Below, piece by piece: positions 12,964 to 18,608 of a stretch of DNA of 57,437 nucleotides. The stretch's first letter is position 1. Each line of letters opens with the position of its first letter. Origin of the DNA: a virus. Taxonomy: Duplodnaviria > Caudoviricetes. The stretch is from positions 1-57,437 of the IMG/VR virus record IMGVR_UViG_3300050033_000419; one strand, given 5' to 3'. The notes under the pieces were generated by a model. It did not search any database and was not told the origin of the DNA. It saw only the letters and a list, made by a program, of their open reading frames with translations. A program made the position numbers and the translations under genes.

Positions 12964-13148
12964 GGTTTACCCGCCTTCTTTTTGGCGCCGGCCTTGGCGC
13001 TGGCCGCTTCGTCGCGGGCGGTGGCCACTGCCCCGAGAACGAGGACGATGCCCAACACGATCACGCCAGCTGCGATGTTGAGCATGCTGACGCCGGCGAC
13101 CACGGCAAGAGCGCCGAAGACCGCCAGGATGTTGCTGGGATTTTTCAT
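12960..13148 (-). CDS. Small membrane protein between terminase and portal
   Basis: Two hydrophobic segments; overlaps both neighbours. Confidence 0.65.
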   Translation of the reverse strand: MKNPSNILAVFGALAVVAGVSMLNIAAGVIVLGIVLVLGAVATARDEAASAKAGAKKKAGKP

Positions 13149-14959
13149 AGAACGGAAATCCTCGGCGTGCCCTTTGGTGCAGCGGTTACAGACGCCCGTA
13201 AAACCGCCATTAGCAACGCAGTTACAGGGTCGATCTTATTTTCCTGACGTTCCTTCGTCGGGAAGATGTTGCCTTTGCGGTCCCTGCGGCATACCACGTT
13301 GCTCATCGCCCACGCCAGCACTGGATCGCCGTCATGGTGGATCCGCACAGATGCAATTGCCGCCTCTAATTCCTTCATGGCTGCGGACATGTTGCGAACA
13401 TTCTGGTCAATGACGACCGGAACGACGTTTCGGTTCCAATCCTCGCGGGCCTGCGCGAATTGCATCAGCGGTGCCGCGTGATAGGGATCGTGTGGTACCT
13501 CGAGAACTACAAACCGGTCGGCGTCGGCAACCAGATCGTCGGTGATCCAAACATAGTCGGTCTCGTTCCCGGGCGTCTCGATGAGCTGGCCGGCATTCGA
13601 CCAGGCGGCATAGTGCGTACCATGCGCTTCCTGCACCTTCGATTCGTTCAGGTAATGCGAGCCGAACACGTAGTAGTGCCGCGTGGCAACGATCGTTTGG
13701 CCGTCTTTCTCTGATAAGCCTTCAAGGTCGCGACGGAAAACGATGATCTTGCTCGCGAGATCGACTTTGCTCGCGAGATCGAGGCCGATGAAACACTCCT
13801 GTTTCTCAAAATCCCCCAATTTCAACTTTGGGTCACAGCACGCATCCCATGCGGCTTGCGTGATCCAGCGCTCGTCCGCGTTCACCCAGATGTTCAGGTG
13901 CTTCGTCTTGAACGAGTTCTCTTTGCGCGGGTTCCGAATGGCCTCGCGATGATCTGCAGTGAGGATCTCCGGGTCCACCGAGACGCCCCAGTTCGGGTTC
14001 GCCTTGATCAGCGATTCAAGCTTGGTCCAGTCTTCACCCTCGTCGATCGTGTAGATGATGCCGAACCAGTTCTCGTTTTCGACCGTCCCCTCGAGGACCT
14101 TCTCTAAATCTTTTTGCAGCGCATAGCACGGGCCGCTGCGGTCGGTGCCGGCAGTGGTGATGACCAAGAGGATGGGGTTTTCGCGACCCACCATACCGGT
14201 CTTCATCGTGTCGTATAGCGTTGCGTCCGGGTGCTCGTGATACTCGTCAATCAGCGCGCACGACGGAGCAGCGCCGTCGCCAGGCTTTCCAATCACCGGC
14301 TCGAAGCGGCTGGAATCACCGATCACCGCCATCTGCTTGGCGCCAACCGTGATGCCAAAACGCTTCGCCATGTCAGGCGTCTGCAGAACCATTTGGCGCG
14401 CTGGGCGGAAGACCTCCCATGCTTGCTTTTCTGTTGATGCGCCGCTATAGACCTCGGCGCCAAACTCGCCGTCCGCCAAGAACATGTAGTCGCCGATCGC
14501 GGCGGCGAGCGGGCTCTTGCCATTCTTGCGGGGCACGATGACCGTTGCTTCGCGGAAACGACGACGTCCGGACTTCTTGCTGATCCATCCGTAAATACTA
14601 CATACAACGAAACACTGCCAGCCCTCGAGCGTGATCTTCAACCGGGCCGCGGCCCATTTGTTCTTGGTGTGCGGCATCAGCTCGATGAAGCGGCAGACCT
14701 TCTCGGCCCTGGCAGCATCGAAGCGAAAGAAGAACTCCTTGGTCTTGCTTCGGCGCAAATCTCTCAGGTGGCGCTCGCACGCCAGGTGCACCCACTTGCA
14801 CGCCACAATCTTGCCGGCGACGATATCGCGCGCATATTTGTTCGCACGCTGAACGTGCGGCGAGCCGCTAGTTAGGCTTGTTGCCGATGATCGTCGCTTT
14901 GCCTTTCGCGCCGGCGCCGGACGACCTGAACTCGCTGAACGGGTCTTTTTCGTCGCCAC
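13145..14959 (-). CDS. terL: Terminase large subunit
   Basis: Walker A VPRKNGKS, ALIDEYHEH, ITTAG, GLDLAS, NKIDPVTA; exact start uncertain. Confidence 0.95.
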   Translation of the reverse strand: MATKKTRSASSGRPAPARKAKRRSSATSLTSGSPHVQRANKYARDIVAGKIVACKWVHLACERHLRDLRRSKTKEFFFRFDAARAEKVCRFIELMPHTKNKWAAARLKITLEGWQCFVVCSIYGWISKKSGRRRFREATVIVPRKNGKSPLAAAIGDYMFLADGEFGAEVYSGASTEKQAWEVFRPARQMVLQTPDMAKRFGITVGAKQMAVIGDSSRFEPVIGKPGDGAAPSCALIDEYHEHPDATLYDTMKTGMVGRENPILLVITTAGTDRSGPCYALQKDLEKVLEGTVENENWFGIIYTIDEGEDWTKLESLIKANPNWGVSVDPEILTADHREAIRNPRKENSFKTKHLNIWVNADERWITQAAWDACCDPKLKLGDFEKQECFIGLDLASKVDLASKIIVFRRDLEGLSEKDGQTIVATRHYYVFGSHYLNESKVQEAHGTHYAAWSNAGQLIETPGNETDYVWITDDLVADADRFVVLEVPHDPYHAAPLMQFAQAREDWNRNVVPVVIDQNVRNMSAAMKELEAAIASVRIHHDGDPVLAWAMSNVVCRRDRKGNIFPTKERQENKIDPVTALLMAVLRASVTAAPKGTPRISVL

Positions 14960-15465: not shown

Positions 15466-15820
15466 ACACCCGGCCGCCTTGGCCACGCTTGCTGCTATGG
15501 TGCGACTTGCACAATGCCTGCATGTTGGCTGGGTCGAACTTGTCGCCGCCGTCGCTCAGCCTGATGATGTGGTGCACTTCGTTGGCTGGCTGATCACAGC
15601 CCTTACTGGCTTCGCACATCGAGTGTCTGTTCAGGTACCACTCTCGATGCCTTCGCCATTCCCAGTCGTAGCCGCGCTCGGCCGAGCTTCCCCGGCTGGC
15701 GTCGTACTGCTTCCGTTGGACGGTTACCACGTTGATCTTGGTGTGACCTGGGCAATAACGACCATCGGCCAGCTCGCCGCATCCTGGCTGGCTACATGGT
15801 TTCCTTGCAGCAGTGGGCAT
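15464..15820 (-). CDS. Packaging-associated HNH endonuclease (HK97 gp74-like)
   Basis: RGYDWEW, EVHHII...NMQALCKSHHS; immediately upstream of terS. Confidence 0.9.
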   Translation of the reverse strand: MPTAARKPCSQPGCGELADGRYCPGHTKINVVTVQRKQYDASRGSSAERGYDWEWRRHREWYLNRHSMCEASKGCDQPANEVHHIIRLSDGGDKFDPANMQALCKSHHSSKRGQGGRV

Positions 15821-16074
15821 TAACTGCCGCCGATCAATTTATTTCTCTGTACTGAACCTGCAATCGCATTCGCACGAAAAGGGCGCGCGAAGAACTTAAT
15901 GCGCAGCGCGGCTTCAACCTGGGCAACGCAGTCAGCGTGCAGTTCCTTGAACCGCTCAATAATGCTGAGCTTTCGTTCCGGGCAGATCCAGTCGCGGCGA
16001 TCCACAAACCTCTTCTTCGAGCACTGCGTGCACTTCAGCGACTGCTCACGATCATTGTGCTCGATGAGATTCAT
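15820..16074 (-). CDS. Hypothetical CxxC protein
   Basis: LKCTQC...HADC; stop abuts the HNH start. Confidence 0.55.
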   Translation of the reverse strand: MNLIEHNDREQSLKCTQCSKKRFVDRRDWICPERKLSIIERFKELHADCVAQVEAALRIKFFARPFRANAIAGSVQRNKLIGGS

Positions 16075-16220
16075 AGAAGGCGCGGATAAGCATTCGAGGC
16101 CGGTCTCTTCCGAGCTGCCTACGTAAAGGCGTCTGCTCATTATGGAAATGGAAACCGGCCACGAATACCAGCTCTGGCAATCTCCGCCGGCCTCCTTCGT
16201 GTGGATTAAGCAACACTCGT

Positions 16221-16361
16221 TCAGGCAGCAGACCCCATCAATGGCCCAGGGACGACCAGACAATCGATCACGATCTTGGTTTCCATTTCCTTGGCGATCA
16301 GGACGCGCGTCTCGCTCTCGCGCAGTATCCGATCAACCAGGGCCATCTGATCGTCGATCAA
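16221..16361 (-). CDS. Small hypothetical protein (46 aa)
   Basis: TTG overlaps the LuxR stop; MIDDQMALVDRILRESETRV...GSAA. Confidence 0.4.
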   Translation of the reverse strand: MIDDQMALVDRILRESETRVLIAKEMETKIVIDCLVVPGPLMGSAA

Positions 16362-16603
16362 TGTGCCGCTATGCATGTGAGCTCCTGCTTTTCGGCTGCG
16401 AATTTCTCTTCGAGAAGCATGACGACGGCGTGGAGCCGATTATTCGCGCCGAGCTTCTCAATCACATGGCTGACTATCACTTTTAGATAATCGGGGCCTA
16501 GGCCCACTTGCGCGGCGATTTCCTTGTACGTCAGCCCGGTCTTCAGCCAGCCAAGTAGACCTTGCTCACGTGGTGTCAGTAAATTCCAGAGTGGACGATT
16601 CAT
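16358..16603 (-). CDS. Stand-alone LuxR/GerE-type HTH protein
   Basis: LTPREQGLLGWLKTGLTYKEIAAQVG...EKLGANNR. Confidence 0.85.
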   Translation of the reverse strand: MNRPLWNLLTPREQGLLGWLKTGLTYKEIAAQVGLGPDYLKVIVSHVIEKLGANNRLHAVVMLLEEKFAAEKQELTCIAAH

Positions 16604-16604
16604 C

Positions 16605-16874
16605 TCAATTGCTCACCATGTTCTCGACCACGATCACGCCATCCCCGTAGATCTCGACATCAACGTTCTTCGACTGCCCGTGCGCTTCGCGAATCTCGCG
16701 CTCGACATCGGCGAAATGCTGCTCCGCCTCGAGCACCTGCTGGTGCGCTTCGAAGAGATTCGTCTTCTCCGCCCAGGTCATGTCCTCGTGGCGCTTGTTC
16801 TCGGCCCACTGGCCGGCAGCGAAAGACGATGCGATAAGTAGCATGAGACCGAGATATTTCATGTGGATTTTCAT
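16605..16874 (-). CDS. Hypothetical exported/membrane protein
   Basis: Signal-peptide-like MKYLGLMLLIASSFAAG. Confidence 0.6.
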   Translation of the reverse strand: MKIHMKYLGLMLLIASSFAAGQWAENKRHEDMTWAEKTNLFEAHQQVLEAEQHFADVEREIREAHGQSKNVDVEIYGDGVIVVENMVSN

Positions 16875-16877
16875 CGG

Positions 16878-16999
16878 AACGCTTTGGGCCGAGATGTCGC
16901 GATCTCGGCCCTGGCGTTTACGCGGCTACCGGTAATTCATAGTCGGCAGTTATACGGTTTTGCCTGCGAATCAATCGCGCGCAATACTCGCCGCTGCGC
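16878..16999 (-). ncRNA. Candidate tmRNA mRNA-like-domain mimic (pseudoknot, tag frame ADYELPVAA, hairpin)
   Basis: TATAACT GCC GAC TAT GAA TTA CCG GTA GCC GCG TAA; upstream H-type pairing; downstream 10-bp hairpin; no tRNA-like domain found. Confidence 0.35.
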
Positions 17000-17026
17000 T
17001 TCTGGCTTCCCCTGCTGGCAGGAGCT

Positions 17027-17137
17027 TTATGAAATGGAGCCACCGACAGGCATCGAACCTGCAACCGTGGCTTTACGGGAGCCCTGCTCTACCAATTGAG
17101 CTACGGTGGCGTTGGTTGTGTGCGTGTCTGTGTCCAT
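17027..17137 (-). CDS. Thr-rich leader peptide (36 aa) translated through tRNA-Thr
   Basis: GAGG SD (17143-17146), ATG GAC ACA GAC ACG CAC ACA ACC AAC, then the tRNA; MDTDTHTTNATVAQ... Confidence 0.6.
   Translation of the reverse strand: MDTDTHTTNATVAQLVEQGSRKATVAGSMPVGGSIS
17035..17110 (-). tRNA. tRNA-Thr(CGT), atypical (C33, G27-A43)
   Basis: GCCACCG/CGGTGGC acceptor, GCTC/GAGC D stem, loop CCCGTAA, TTCGA T loop, encoded CCA. Confidence 0.9.
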
Positions 17138-17154
17138 AATTTCCTCGTGAACCT

Positions 17155-17243
17155 TGGCGGAGGGCGGAAGAATCGAACTCCTGACGCTCATCACGTCACC
17201 CTGGGTTTCGGATCCAGTTGCCGGCCATTCAGCGGCGCCCTCC
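17155..17243 (-). tRNA. tRNA-Ser(CGA), 8/4 acceptor/T-stem type
   Basis: GGAGGGCG/CGCCCTCC 8-bp acceptor, GGAG/CTTC 4-bp T stem, long variable arm TGACG/CGTCA, G73, CCA, loop TCCGAAA. Confidence 0.85.
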
Positions 17244-17248
17244 GAAAT

Positions 17249-17338
17249 TGGCGGAGAGTGCTGGATTCGAACCAGCGATGCCTTGTTCAGGCATACCGCA
17301 TTAGCAGTGCGGCGGTTTATCCGCTCACCCAACTCTCC
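17249..17338 (-). tRNA. tRNA-Ser(GCT), canonical 7/5
   Basis: GGAGAGT/ACTCTCC, CCGCA-CTGCTAA-TGCGG, long variable arm, G73, CCA. Confidence 0.95.
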
Positions 17339-17619
17339 ATTGTCGAATTAGAACTGCTAGATGATGAGCTCACGGCATTCCTCGAAACTTGCATTTCCGC
17401 GATTAGGACTGCCAACTGGAGCTTGGTCTCGGCACCGAGTTTATCCAGGAGCATTTTCATGTACTTCTTGACGACATTCTCGGTCGTCCCCACCGCAACG
17501 CCAATCTGCCGATTTGTCATTCCAGACGGAATCAGCACGGCAATCGATCTCAGGCGCGGCGAAAGACGCTCGAATTGCACCGTGAAGTGAGAATCGGTGA
17601 TCAATGTGCCGTTATTCAT
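17317..17619 (-). CDS. LuxR-type HTH protein with C-terminal poly-Ser running into tRNA-Ser(GCT)
   Basis: LSPRLRSIAVLIPSGMTNRQIG...TTENVVKKYMKMLLDKLG...VSSSSSSSNS; ATG overlaps the upstream gene end. Confidence 0.82.
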   Translation of the reverse strand: MNNGTLITDSHFTVQFERLSPRLRSIAVLIPSGMTNRQIGVAVGTTENVVKKYMKMLLDKLGAETKLQLAVLIAEMQVSRNAVSSSSSSSNSTMESWVSG

Positions 17620-17854
17620 TCGAGCTACACCGTCGTTCGGCTGCGTGTTTTTCTTCGAGAAGGATGACGATGGCATGGATGCGATTATTCGCGGCGATCT
17701 TCTCAGCCACCAGGGCGGTCATCTTTTTTACGTAATCGGTGCTGACGTCCATTTGGGGGGCAATTTCCTTGTAGGTCAGCCCCATCTTTAGCCAGCCGAG
17801 GAGAGCTTGCTCGCGTGGTGTCAGTTTTTCCCACAGCGGGCGCTTCGATTCCAT
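17612..17854 (-). CDS. LuxR-type HTH protein, paralog of 16358-16603
   Basis: GAGG SD; LTPREQALLGWLKMGLTYKEIA...EKIAANNR. Confidence 0.85.
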   Translation of the reverse strand: MESKRPLWEKLTPREQALLGWLKMGLTYKEIAPQMDVSTDYVKKMTALVAEKIAANNRIHAIVILLEEKHAAERRCSSNE

Positions 17855-17904
17855 AGGTTTCCTCAACGTTTAAGCACGCAATCGATTGGCCGTGGGGCGT
17901 CTCT

Positions 17905-17942
17905 AAAAGCAAAAGCCCGAACCTGTTTTGGTTCAAGCCTTT
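17905..17942 (-). terminator. Terminator in putative late-operon leader
   Basis: AAGGCTTGAACC-AAAACA-GGTTCGGGCTTTTGCTTTT. Confidence 0.65.
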
Positions 17943-18103
17943 ATGCGGTACGTTTGCGACGGAGTTGCCGGCTAAAAATGTCGCTGGGCGCGACGGGTAG
18001 TAAGACTTACGCTCGGCAACTCCGCCAGTCTGGCATAACTATTACGCACTCTGCTGTTAGCGACAATCCCTATATGGGTCTTTTATGCGAAAAACGTGGT
18101 TTT

Positions 18104-18119
18104 TGTTCCACGTAGAACA
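18104..18119. promoter_or_regulatory. parS-like palindrome
   Basis: TGTTCCACGTAGAACA, one mismatch to TGTTCCACGTGGAACA; intergenic. Confidence 0.45.
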
Positions 18120-18167
18120 ACCCAAGGTGAACAGTGGCGCATCACACATTTTTGGCTTCCGGAACGC

Positions 18168-18608
18168 TCATAGGAGCTTATCCAGCCCGCACGTGCGAAG
18201 CGACGACACCTGGTGAATACAGGCCATTATGAGGCTCAGAGAACCTTCTTCTTCTGGATCTTCGTCCCGCTCAAGGCTGTAAAGTTTCAACAATAGCAGC
18301 TCAAGCGCTTCCAGTTTGTCTGGTAGGTGCTGGGCGTACCTCTCCAGAGCGTCTTTCTTTTCCCTACAGTTTTTCAGCATCCGCACGGCTCCGTTCAGTC
18401 GAGCCTTCTGTAATTTCCAATCCTGCGTAAGTGTCCCGAGGCCGAGTTGCAGCCGCTCAATTTTTTTCCGTAGCGGAGCGGCTACTGTCTCGGCATAGGC
18501 AGTCAGTTCTTTTGCAATTTCGTTCAGTTGATACGGGTTGTTTCCTGGATCAACCATAATTGTCACGGCGAGGATTCGTGTAGCAATCTCTCTTGCGCTT
18601 ATAGTCAT
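18168..18608 (-). CDS. Hypothetical protein (SARE / YAETVAAPL module)
   Basis: ATGA-coupled operon; shares DNA repeats with neighbours. Confidence 0.6.
   Translation of the reverse strand: MTISAREIATRILAVTIMVDPGNNPYQLNEIAKELTAYAETVAAPLRKKIERLQLGLGTLTQDWKLQKARLNGAVRMLKNCREKKDALERYAQHLPDKLEALELLLLKLYSLERDEDPEEEGSLSLIMACIHQVSSLRTCGLDKLL

Follow-up and report, generated by a model that had tools for sequence, protein, structure and literature searches.

A minus-strand gene for a LuxR/GerE-type regulator was found to end inside a tRNA-Ser(GCU) gene, directly after a run of serine codons, in the phage DNA analysed here (57,437 nt, referred to as the window). The arrangement probably represents a lineage-specific low-complexity tail on an ordinary regulator gene that lies tightly packed next to three clustered tRNA genes. 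The evidence goes no further than tight gene packing and an unconserved, floppy protein tail, and it does not support a role of the serine codons as a sensor. As the evidence stands, the junction is a reproducible phage case of a coding frame ending in a tRNA gene, and the analysis is a worked negative for the idea of a codon sensor. The host of this uncultured peat-soil phage probably belongs to the Terriglobia (Acidobacteriota). The following features were located at the junction:

17317..17619, minus strand: LuxR/GerE-type HTH regulator gene, 100 codons from ATG 17619 (ORF list, Pfam GerE)
17676..17317, minus strand: longer frame of the same gene, 119 aa from ATG 17676
17344..17370, minus strand: serine tract, consisting of S7 (17370–17350), Asn and Ser (17346–17344)
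17317..17338, minus strand: overlap of the regulator ORF end with tRNA-Ser(GCU), 22 nt, spanning the 5′ side of the acceptor stem and the D arm as far as the D loop
17249..17338, minus strand: tRNA-Ser(GCU), class II, CCA encoded (ARAGORN; Rfam RF00005, 59.2 bits)
17155..17243, minus strand: irregular 8/4 serine-type tRNA (base pairs checked; Rfam tRNA-Sec, sub-threshold)
17035..17110, minus strand: tRNA-Thr(CGU), third of the cluster (ARAGORN; Rfam, 55 bits)
16886..16911, minus strand: perfect 10-bp G+C-rich hairpin 3′ of tRNA-Thr (fold of 16876–16945, −28.7 kcal/mol, z −4.0)

The regulator was assigned to the LuxR/GerE family by a Pfam GerE (PF00196) match, which scored 29.8 bits (E 4.5e-7; gathering cut-off 23.5 bits) over residues 37–91 of the 119-aa form, and by 1317 phmmer relatives at E ≤ 1e-3, and its 100-aa product is recorded in the protein collection. 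An AlphaFold2 model (alignment A1) contained helices at residues 9–17, 21–32, 36–43, 47–61 and 66–90, with the four helices of an HTH domain and pLDDT values of 90–96 over residues 11–80. The values fell to 74 and then 58 in the last two 10-residue blocks; the serine tract was placed at the end of the long helix with falling confidence, which was read simply as low confidence. Within the family, the protein is distinguished as an HTH-only form of 100 residues with a unique Ser-rich tail.

The protein ends with AV-SSSSSSS-N-S-T-M-ESWVSG, encoded by AGC TCA TCA TCT AGC AGT TCT AAT TCG ACA AT/G GAG AGT TGG GTG AGC GGA TAA, where the slash marks the tRNA 5′ end. The preliminary description, made from the sequence, had given the same end codons, eight of nine encoding serine by five different codons, and a stop 22 nt inside the tRNA; letter by letter, both were confirmed, with the TAA at 17319–17317 (minus strand) forming bases 20–22 of the tRNA at 17338–17249. 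Its geometry also holds: a terminating ribosome would occupy the D arm together with the 5′ half of the acceptor stem, and a cut at the tRNA G+1 would drop the last seven codons and the stop, giving a non-stop message. Earlier termination of the ORF was checked in the sequence, and no in-frame stop was present ahead of the tRNA in the regulator frame. Contigs from four other peat metagenome runs covered the junction (X3, 16534–17606; X5, 17229–17589; X4, 17290–17582; X6, 17192–17342) with 0 differing letters and 0 gaps, and on this basis an assembly or frameshift artefact was rejected.

The overlapped tRNA-Ser(GCU) is a canonical class II tRNA-Ser, with cloverleaf, long variable arm, serine anticodon and G73 at 17249–17338; its Rfam score of 59.2 bits compares with a gathering score of 29 bits, and the cloverleaf has an MFE of −42.5 kcal/mol (z −5.0). 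When 172 nt were folded, the cloverleaf was the sole stable structure. Base −1 is U, base +1 is G and the 3′ RCCA is encoded as GCCA; these are good determinants for RNase P. An exact 39-nt piece of the tRNA gave 0 matches in IMG/VR, and among annotated phage records the tRNA was matched by 4 Erwinia phage records at 73.6% identity. No sigma-70-like promoter site was called in 15800–18400, a scan which promoters of Acidobacteriota and of their phages need not fit, and none of the 4 terminator-like sites in the terminator scan lay between the ORF and the tRNAs, all being elsewhere.

The preliminary description had spoken of two downstream tRNAs for serine. This stood for the first, tRNA-Ser(GCU), but the second proved to be an irregular 8/4 serine-type tRNA rather than an ordinary one, and the third is tRNA-Thr(cgt). 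A mini-ORF preceded by GAGGA, M-D-T-D-T-H-T-T-N, runs into tRNA-Thr. Its DNA is CA-rich and of low complexity, with Thr in two of three frames. The hairpin at 16886–16911, which is not followed by a T run and was not called by the terminator scan, may mark the end of the unit or a processing site.

Upstream of the regulator, and on the far side of the tRNA cluster, two further genes of the same family were annotated:

17612..17866, minus strand: upstream LuxR/GerE HTH gene, 84 codons from TTG 17866 (Pfam GerE, E 2.8e-9)
16350..16603, minus strand: paralogous LuxR/GerE gene (81 codons) with 34 nt downstream (Pfam GerE, E 7.9e-11; repeat families D1, D2)

The regulator start, ATG 17619, overlaps the stop of the upstream gene as ATGAATAA; the upstream gene has an alternative ATG at 17854, preceded by GAGGA. 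Positions 16350–16603 form a direct repeat of 17593–17846 with 77–82% identity, and since this repeat of about 250 nt flanks the regulator region, the region has been rearranged. A 51-codon ORF that follows the paralog was considered as a decayed copy of the 100-codon gene and rejected, as BLASTP gave no alignment; DNA homology to the 100-codon gene ends about 30 nt into this ORF. No integrase was detected among the 20 larger ORFs scanned.

Relatives of the regulator were sought in several collections, none of which contained one with >50% identity. A word-index search returned only the protein itself (one of seven candidates), and among the 1317 phmmer hits again only the protein itself exceeded 50%; best-stretch matches stopped at query residue 97 or before, mostly at 70–90. 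None of the 149 other representatives listed had a Ser run of at least 5 or a Ser-run tail. The nearest small homologues (P0018, P0019 and P0030; 43–46% identical) end 6–13 residues past the last HTH helix. From 161 loci, 153 complete homologue ORFs were evaluated, none of which had a Ser run >5 or overlapped a tRNA, the closest tRNA being 62 nt away; the 8 loci left out had an ORF cut by a contig end or a tail of >120 residues. In L214, one of these 8, the frame reads through a tRNA. In 401 Terriglobia-class genomes, one of them unpublished and used for this tally only, identity to the regulator was at best ≤44% and the tail was not found. When IMG/VR was scanned with the protein alone, none of the 32 pattern matches proved to be a relative, and a scan with alignment A2 gave one locus (L081, 36% identity) without a tRNA. 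As the tail is present in no relative found, selection on serine, which the preliminary description took to be implied, cannot be shown.

Of 588 loci with a relative of the large terminase, 80 were kept, all ≤57% identical; one of them had a tRNA nearby (tRNA-Tyr, L074) and 0/80 had the regulator–tRNA-Ser arrangement, and the tRNA block is thus not conserved at ≤57% terminase identity. When the 1.6-kb region was compared with annotated phage records, tRNA-Thr alone was matched (5% of the query, 126 records). In phrase searches of the open-access literature, no description came up of a phage tRNA-Ser in which a regulator gene ends.

The following course of events is proposed for the packed regulator gene and its unconserved tail. 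The regulator is the second of two translationally coupled LuxR/GerE genes, with no spacer before the tRNA cluster. The approximately 19 residues beyond the end of the nearest homologues comprise Ser7-Asn-Ser-Thr and 7 residues templated by the tRNA, an extension that is probably disordered. Most likely, either an ancestral stop was lost or the tRNA block was joined to the gene in the duplicated, rearranged region, and the first in-frame stop would merely happen to land in the D loop of tRNA-Ser(GCU). The regulators and tRNAs would be made as one precursor, and each transcript would either be translated into full-length regulator or be cut by RNase P at U−1/G+1 to release tRNA-Ser, the cut leaving a stop-less message that would be cleared by host ribosome rescue. 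We infer that processing by RNase P and full-length translation are mutually exclusive on any one transcript, a choice which overlaps of this kind imply.

In E. coli, RNase P is reported to separate mRNA–tRNA co-transcripts and to process polycistronic precursors at the 5′ end of each tRNA (PMC7049720 and PMC2190699, on tRNA operons). The idea that tRNA processing and full-length translation are alternatives is already in print for selB and selC (Mukai 2021, PMC8124441). In that paper, selB is described as running into or containing selC, with a same-strand stop at bases 46–48 of tRNA-Sec in Dyella and Luteibacter; processing of the tRNA is proposed to strip the mRNA of its stop, each transcript thus serving for either the protein or the tRNA. 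The phage junction resembles selB–selC in its same-strand ORF stop inside a tRNA gene and in a C-terminal extension translated from tRNA sequence. It differs in that, according to PMC8124441, the selB–selC overlap is conserved across lineages and SelB binds that very tRNA, whereas the phage arrangement is a singleton. The phage gene moreover encodes a DNA-binding regulator, its stop lies at bases 20–22 and a poly-Ser tract precedes the tRNA.

A message from which the stop is removed is also familiar from arfA. In E. coli, RNase III cleaves this mRNA within a hairpin, giving a stop-less message, and the protein level is gated via tmRNA; ArfA is itself a rescue factor. By analogy, a phage regulator whose stop was removed by an endonuclease could likewise depend on trans-translation capacity for its product, although the cut would be made by RNase P at a tRNA instead of by RNase III at a hairpin.

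On these models, a programmed switch was weighed, in which the overlap is selected and maturation of tRNA-Ser by RNase P deliberately removes the regulator stop. The truncated product (...SSSSSSSNST) would be tagged and degraded by trans-translation, and the regulator would build up solely in the early phase that precedes processing, or under saturation of RNase P or of ribosome rescue. The stop inside the tRNA without an earlier in-frame stop, the identity of the junction in contigs of four other runs, and U−1, G+1 and the encoded GCCA, which would favour cleavage, are consistent with such a switch, and a model of this kind has been published for selB, the stop of which lies at tRNA-Sec bases 46–48 (PMC8124441). 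Against it, both the protein and the arrangement are singletons, so that no conservation points to selection; among the terminase-related loci (≤57% identical), 1/80 had any tRNA and 0 had the arrangement; and LuxR-type regulators are not known to have a functional connection with tRNA-Ser of the kind that SelB has with tRNA-Sec. A programmed switch was consequently regarded as unlikely. If the overlap were selected, it would represent a new means by which a virus couples a transcription regulator and the production of its own tRNAs to translational state, without a terminator hairpin.

It is similarly doubtful that the overlap is irrelevant in the cell, with transcription of the tRNAs starting separately within the last part of the regulator gene, or the regulator message ending upstream, and tail and tRNA thus coming from different molecules. 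A TCTAAT motif (5/6 match to TATAAT) ends 8 nt before the tRNA G+1, and promoters of Acidobacteriota or of their phages need not fit the sigma-70 scan. The scan nevertheless called no promoter-like site, and the −35 position matches TTGACA at 2/6 bases; a tRNA promoter of its own would, furthermore, not stop ribosomes on read-through transcripts of the regulator.

The serine tract itself was examined for chance occurrence and for codon choice. S7 is the longest Ser run across the six frames of the window, which contain 28 runs of at least 4, 7 of at least 5 and 1 of at least 6. Markov copies of the window contained a run of at least 7 in 2/100 (order-2) and 3/100 (order-5) cases; the run is unusual in one window and not rare if very many windows are scanned. 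The statement that slippage cannot explain the run was too strong, as short periodic pieces (TCATCATC and AGCAG) are present in the tract. Counted against the preferred explanation, tail and packing, was that S7 lies in the true frame, is written with five codons and directly precedes a tRNA for the same amino acid. The Ser codons comprise 3 AGY, 1 TCG, 2 TCA and 2 TCT. By the wobble rules, phage tRNAs with anticodons GCU and CGA would read 4/8 (50%) of them, compared with 420/652 (64%) in 15 long phage genes, and TCA and TCT, read by neither, make up 4/8 in the tract vs 19% genome-wide; the proposed match between the Ser codons and the downstream tRNAs was accordingly not borne out.

A more elaborate proposal, a translation-coupled gate built from the Ser tract and the in-tRNA stop, was held to be very improbable. 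Fast ribosomes would complete the regulator and in doing so open up the nascent tRNA-Ser; ribosomes stalled when seryl-tRNA is short would let the tRNA fold, and its excision by RNase P would destroy the regulator message; together with the Thr mini-ORF, this would amount to a terminator-free, cognate-amino-acid feedback on phage tRNA supply and on the early regulator.

The codons as a sensor, in which the pace of ribosomes along the Ser tract would reflect the supply of Ser-tRNA, decide between invasion and unfolding of the nascent tRNA-Ser and its folding and processing, and feed back on the regulator level, the output of phage tRNA-Ser or the two together, are likewise a very improbable reading: the tract, which does immediately precede tRNA-Ser, holds 3/8 AGY codons read by GCU and 1 TCG, is the tail of a domain protein of 100 residues and not a short leader, and leaves, with 6 nt from the last Ser codon to G+1, no room for a terminator or antiterminator, the cloverleaf being the only stable fold. 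In position, a ribosome paused at the first Ser codons (17370) would, with the usual footprint, leave about 15 nt free ahead of the tRNA, and one on the last Ser codons would cover the tRNA 5′ strand. The Thr-rich mini-ORF before tRNA-Thr would fit a sensor and was counted against the preferred explanation as a second cognate-looking coincidence in the tRNA cluster, but it lies in the low-complexity DNA described above.

Amino acid attenuators offer the closest model for such sensing. In those of his, thr, leu and phe, a short leader ORF stands apart, ends at a stop of its own and is followed by alternative hairpins and a terminator. The likeness is that repeated codons for a single amino acid precede a gene connected with it. 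In the phage, by comparison, these codons form the tail of a domain protein and belong to a 100-codon GerE gene, alternative hairpins and an intrinsic terminator are lacking (no terminator-like site), half of the codons are those that the sensed tRNAs would not read, and the downstream gene is a tRNA.

A partial echo of the arrangement was present in Terriglobia, in a clade of response regulators with Ser-richer tails and a tRNA-Ser(GGA) located 100–760 nt downstream without overlap. The mean Ser fraction of the tail was 0.133 in the 20 loci with downstream tRNA-Ser(GGA) vs 0.070 in the 133 other loci, Ser runs of at least 3 were present in 6/20 of these loci vs 2/133 others, and TCC and TCT accounted for 42% of the Ser codons in the tails vs 31% in neighbouring long ORFs (157 loci, tails of >120 residues left out). 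This association was counted against the preferred explanation and in favour of a sensor. However, Ala codons (197) outnumber Ser codons (132) in these tails, which lie at least 100 nt from the tRNA, and as 19/20 of the tRNA-Ser(GGA) loci belong to one clade, the association counts as about one event. The phage regulator falls outside this clade in a tree calculated by a quick method from 77 columns, with many forks unresolved, and the host relatives are two-domain response regulators, unlike the HTH-only phage protein. Capture of a host regulator–tRNA-Ser block by the phage was rejected on the low identity of the tRNA-Ser to those of hosts: comparison with five Terriglobia-type genomes gave only matches of 34–38 nt at 81–84%, and the phage tRNA-Ser is 61–64% identical to 14/15 aligned host tRNA-Ser(GGA) genes and 52% identical to the fifteenth (L142).

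The middle tRNA (17243–17155), which ARAGORN did not call, was matched by the Rfam tRNA-Sec model alone, with 26.2 bits at a threshold of 47. It has an 8-bp acceptor stem with 8/8 standard pairs, a 4-bp T stem with 4/4 standard pairs, a D stem of 5 pairs closed by the tetraloop GAAU, a long variable arm, G73 and CCA; the 7/5 alternative requires an A–C pair. The anticodon loop UCCGAAA would give the anticodon CGA if it is a 7-nt loop, with C at position 33. Mukai et al. (2017, PMC5389517) describe (8/4) tRNA-Ser and allo-tRNAs of phages and Acidobacteria. The features that the relevant part of this paper gives for them, namely a 12-bp acceptor branch divided 8/4, a D arm like that of tRNA-Sec, a long variable arm and G73 or U73, were all found in the middle tRNA, which has G73 and a long D stem with a tetraloop; its C33 and an A31–C39 mismatch are not among the features found in that part of PMC5389517. 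Three side observations are possibly more useful to specialists than the Ser tail: that a phage of Acidobacteriota type carries an 8/4 serine-type tRNA, that two of its tRNAs have C33, and that response regulator and tRNA-Ser(GGA) are syntenic in Terriglobia. The second tRNA with C at position 33 is tRNA-Thr, the anticodon loop of which reads CCCGUAA.

The record, all 57,437 bases of which lie in the window, was rated complete by CheckV and carries nearly all of its genes on the minus strand. Portal, head protease, major head protein and tail proteins were identified using PHROGs, as was the large terminase, and the serine-tail/tRNA locus lies in the regulatory region immediately upstream of the HNH gene and the terminase gene. 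Since nearly all relatives of the regulator protein come either from genomes of Terriglobia (Acidobacteriota) or from metagenomes of soil or peat, and the regulator–tRNA stretch was found in 15 listed peat metagenome runs, the host is probably a peat acidobacterium. From 17866 to 16886 (minus strand), two GerE genes, three tRNAs and a hairpin follow one another.

Features of the locus and the terminase
From 17866, minus: first GerE-family HTH gene, 84 codons (Pfam, E = 2.8e-9)
From ATG 17619, minus: second GerE-family gene (Pfam, E = 4.5e-7)
17338–17249, minus: tRNA-Ser(GCU)
Five bases, minus: spacer between tRNA-Ser(GCU) and the irregular serine-type tRNA
17243–17155, minus: irregular serine-type tRNA
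17111–17154, minus: 44-base spacer, irregular serine-type tRNA to tRNA-Thr
17110–17035, minus: tRNA-Thr(CGU)
16911–16886, minus: perfect 10-bp hairpin
13145–14959: large terminase (PHROGs)

The ATG of the second GerE gene shares bases with the stop of the first, as ATGAATAA. Its frame has no stop ahead of tRNA-Ser(GCU); the C-terminus reads ...EMQVSRNAV SSSSSSS N S T M/ESWVSG (slash: tRNA base 1), and the TAA occupies bases 20–22 of the tRNA, in the D loop. Contigs from four other runs cover this junction with 0 letter differences and 0 gaps, so an assembly error or frameshift was excluded as source of the overlap; the serine tail, its codons and the stop inside the tRNA were confirmed as first described. 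All of these contigs break somewhere from 17577 to 17843. The probable cause is a direct repeat of ~250 nt (16350–16601 and 17593–17846; 77–82% identity), which carries two paralogous GerE genes and the first ~30 nt of the following ORF.

On balance, we favour a real regulator gene with an ordinary, lineage-specific, low-complexity C-terminal extension, packed tightly against a tRNA cluster in a rearranged region. No relative more than 50% identical to the regulator was found in any collection searched (a word index of 5.8 billion proteins, 1.84 billion representatives, IMG/VR, JGI metagenomes, one genome per species, and 401 genomes of Terriglobia-type class). All matches were confined to the HTH, the serine-run tail was absent from the 149 other listed representatives, and the three nearest small homologues end 6–13 residues past the last helix. 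No frame of the window has a serine run longer than these seven residues; runs of at least seven occurred in 2 of 100 and 3 of 100 simulated windows (trinucleotide and hexanucleotide make-up kept, respectively). Such a run is unusual in one window, yet expected many times when very many windows are scanned. Among the representative proteins, P0002, P0003, P0005 and P0009–P0011 are HTH-matching predictions 1,084 to 7,703 residues long, in which 5 to 14 separate stretches resemble GerE; these may be repeat architecture or gene-calling artefacts.

If regulators and tRNAs were a single transcript, a ribosome completing the regulator would cover the D arm of tRNA-Ser and the 5' strand of its acceptor stem, and an RNase P cut at U-1/G+1 would strip the stop and the seven codons before it from the regulator message; these consequences, drawn from the geometry in the preliminary description, do follow, as inferences. 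For selB genes that include the tRNA-Sec gene or stop within it, a model in which a transcript gives either the protein or the tRNA has already been published (PMC8124441), so the kind of arrangement is known. The present overlap would be a new, unconserved instance of that kind in a phage. A non-stop switch, with the overlap as a selected device, is unlikely.

Very improbable is a translation-coupled gate in which the serine tract, tied to the serine tRNAs, senses their charged supply. It draws on an in-frame run of seven serines, written in five codons, immediately before a serine tRNA, and on a further coincidence within this cluster: the 44-nt spacer (17111–17154, minus) contains GAGGA as ribosome-binding site, 5 nt and ATG, opening a threonine-rich mini-ORF (M-D-T-D-T-H-T-T-N) whose frame stays open across the whole tRNA-Thr, to 17027 (minus). 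That spacer is, however, CA-rich low-complexity DNA with threonine codons in two of three frames. By standard wobble, anticodon GCU reads AGC and AGU, and CGA reads UCG; three of the eight serine codons of the tract are thus GCU-readable, one is CGA-readable, and four (TCA, TCT) are read by neither phage tRNA. Across 15 long phage genes, with 652 serines among 8,001 codons, 64% of serine codons are of the three readable kinds and 19% are TCA or TCT; if anything, the tract is depleted in codons served by the phage tRNAs. A classical leader-peptide attenuator was excluded, because only six bases separate the last serine codon from tRNA-Ser(GCU), no terminator-like or promoter-like sites were found between tract and tRNA, and the cloverleaf was the sole stable structure in a 172-base fold. 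Only direct competition of the ribosome with the folding tRNA would remain conceivable. With codon match, anatomy and the lack of a counterpart of the tail among relatives all against it, the sensor fails while the geometry holds, and the first interpretation is partly supported.

Homologues with and without a downstream tRNA-Ser were compared using 153 complete ORFs out of 161 loci. A same-strand tRNA-Ser(GGA) lies within 800 nt downstream in 20 of the 153, all from Terriglobia genomes and soil metagenomes, at 100–760 nt from the GerE gene.

Homologue loci with downstream tRNA-Ser(GGA)
L102, L130, L132, L138, L142, L145, L148, L150, L154, L160
L170, L189, L195, L198, L217, L223, L231, L232, L234, L235

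Tails at these loci are richer in serine (13.3%, n = 20, vs 7.0%, n = 133) and more often have serine runs of at least three (6/20 vs 2/133), some including SSSS or SSSSS. Neither a serine run above five nor an ORF–tRNA overlap occurred among the 153 ORFs, including the 20 near tRNA-Ser. The 20 tails are Ala/Ser/Pro-rich, with more alanine (197) than serine (132) in 991 codons. In a quick tree of weak resolution, a single clade of 43 rows takes in 19 of the 20 loci; the phage regulator groups with P0018, outside the Terriglobia group. The most suitable reading of the association is hence a gene order inherited once within a single bacterial clade, lending no independent support. The host tRNA-Ser(GGA) is 61–64% identical to phage tRNA-Ser(GCU) in 14 of 15 aligned cases and 52% in L142. 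A domain scan of one of the 20 regulators, L235, showed a response regulator with two domains, REC and GerE.

Two downstream serine tRNAs had been proposed; tRNA-Ser(GCU) is ordinary, while the second is an irregular 8/4 serine-type tRNA and a third is tRNA-Thr. The irregular tRNA (17243–17155) received no ARAGORN call, and in Rfam matched the tRNA-Sec model only, below threshold. Its pairing agrees with an 8-bp acceptor stem and 4-bp T stem, with a tRNA-Sec-like D arm (5-bp D stem, tetraloop GAAU), a long variable arm, G73-CCA and anticodon loop UCCGAAA. The (8/4) tRNA-Ser and allo-tRNAs reported from phages and Acidobacteria have this architecture (PMC5389517). In both this tRNA and tRNA-Thr (loop CCCGUAA) a mismatch closes the anticodon stem. 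In both, C also replaces U33, which is near-universal in tRNAs. Published work describes phage tRNAs whose anticodon-loop changes let them evade anticodon nucleases of the host (PMC10264068).

Antisense to tRNA-Ser (17252–17304, plus), an Rfam 'Plastid-psbl-rps4 3'UTR' match (44.6 bits, threshold 68) is almost certainly no real feature but an antisense-tRNA look-alike. Between the tRNA cluster and a third GerE gene, an 89-codon ORF (16605–16874, minus) without Pfam match has a hydrophobic, signal-like N-terminus.
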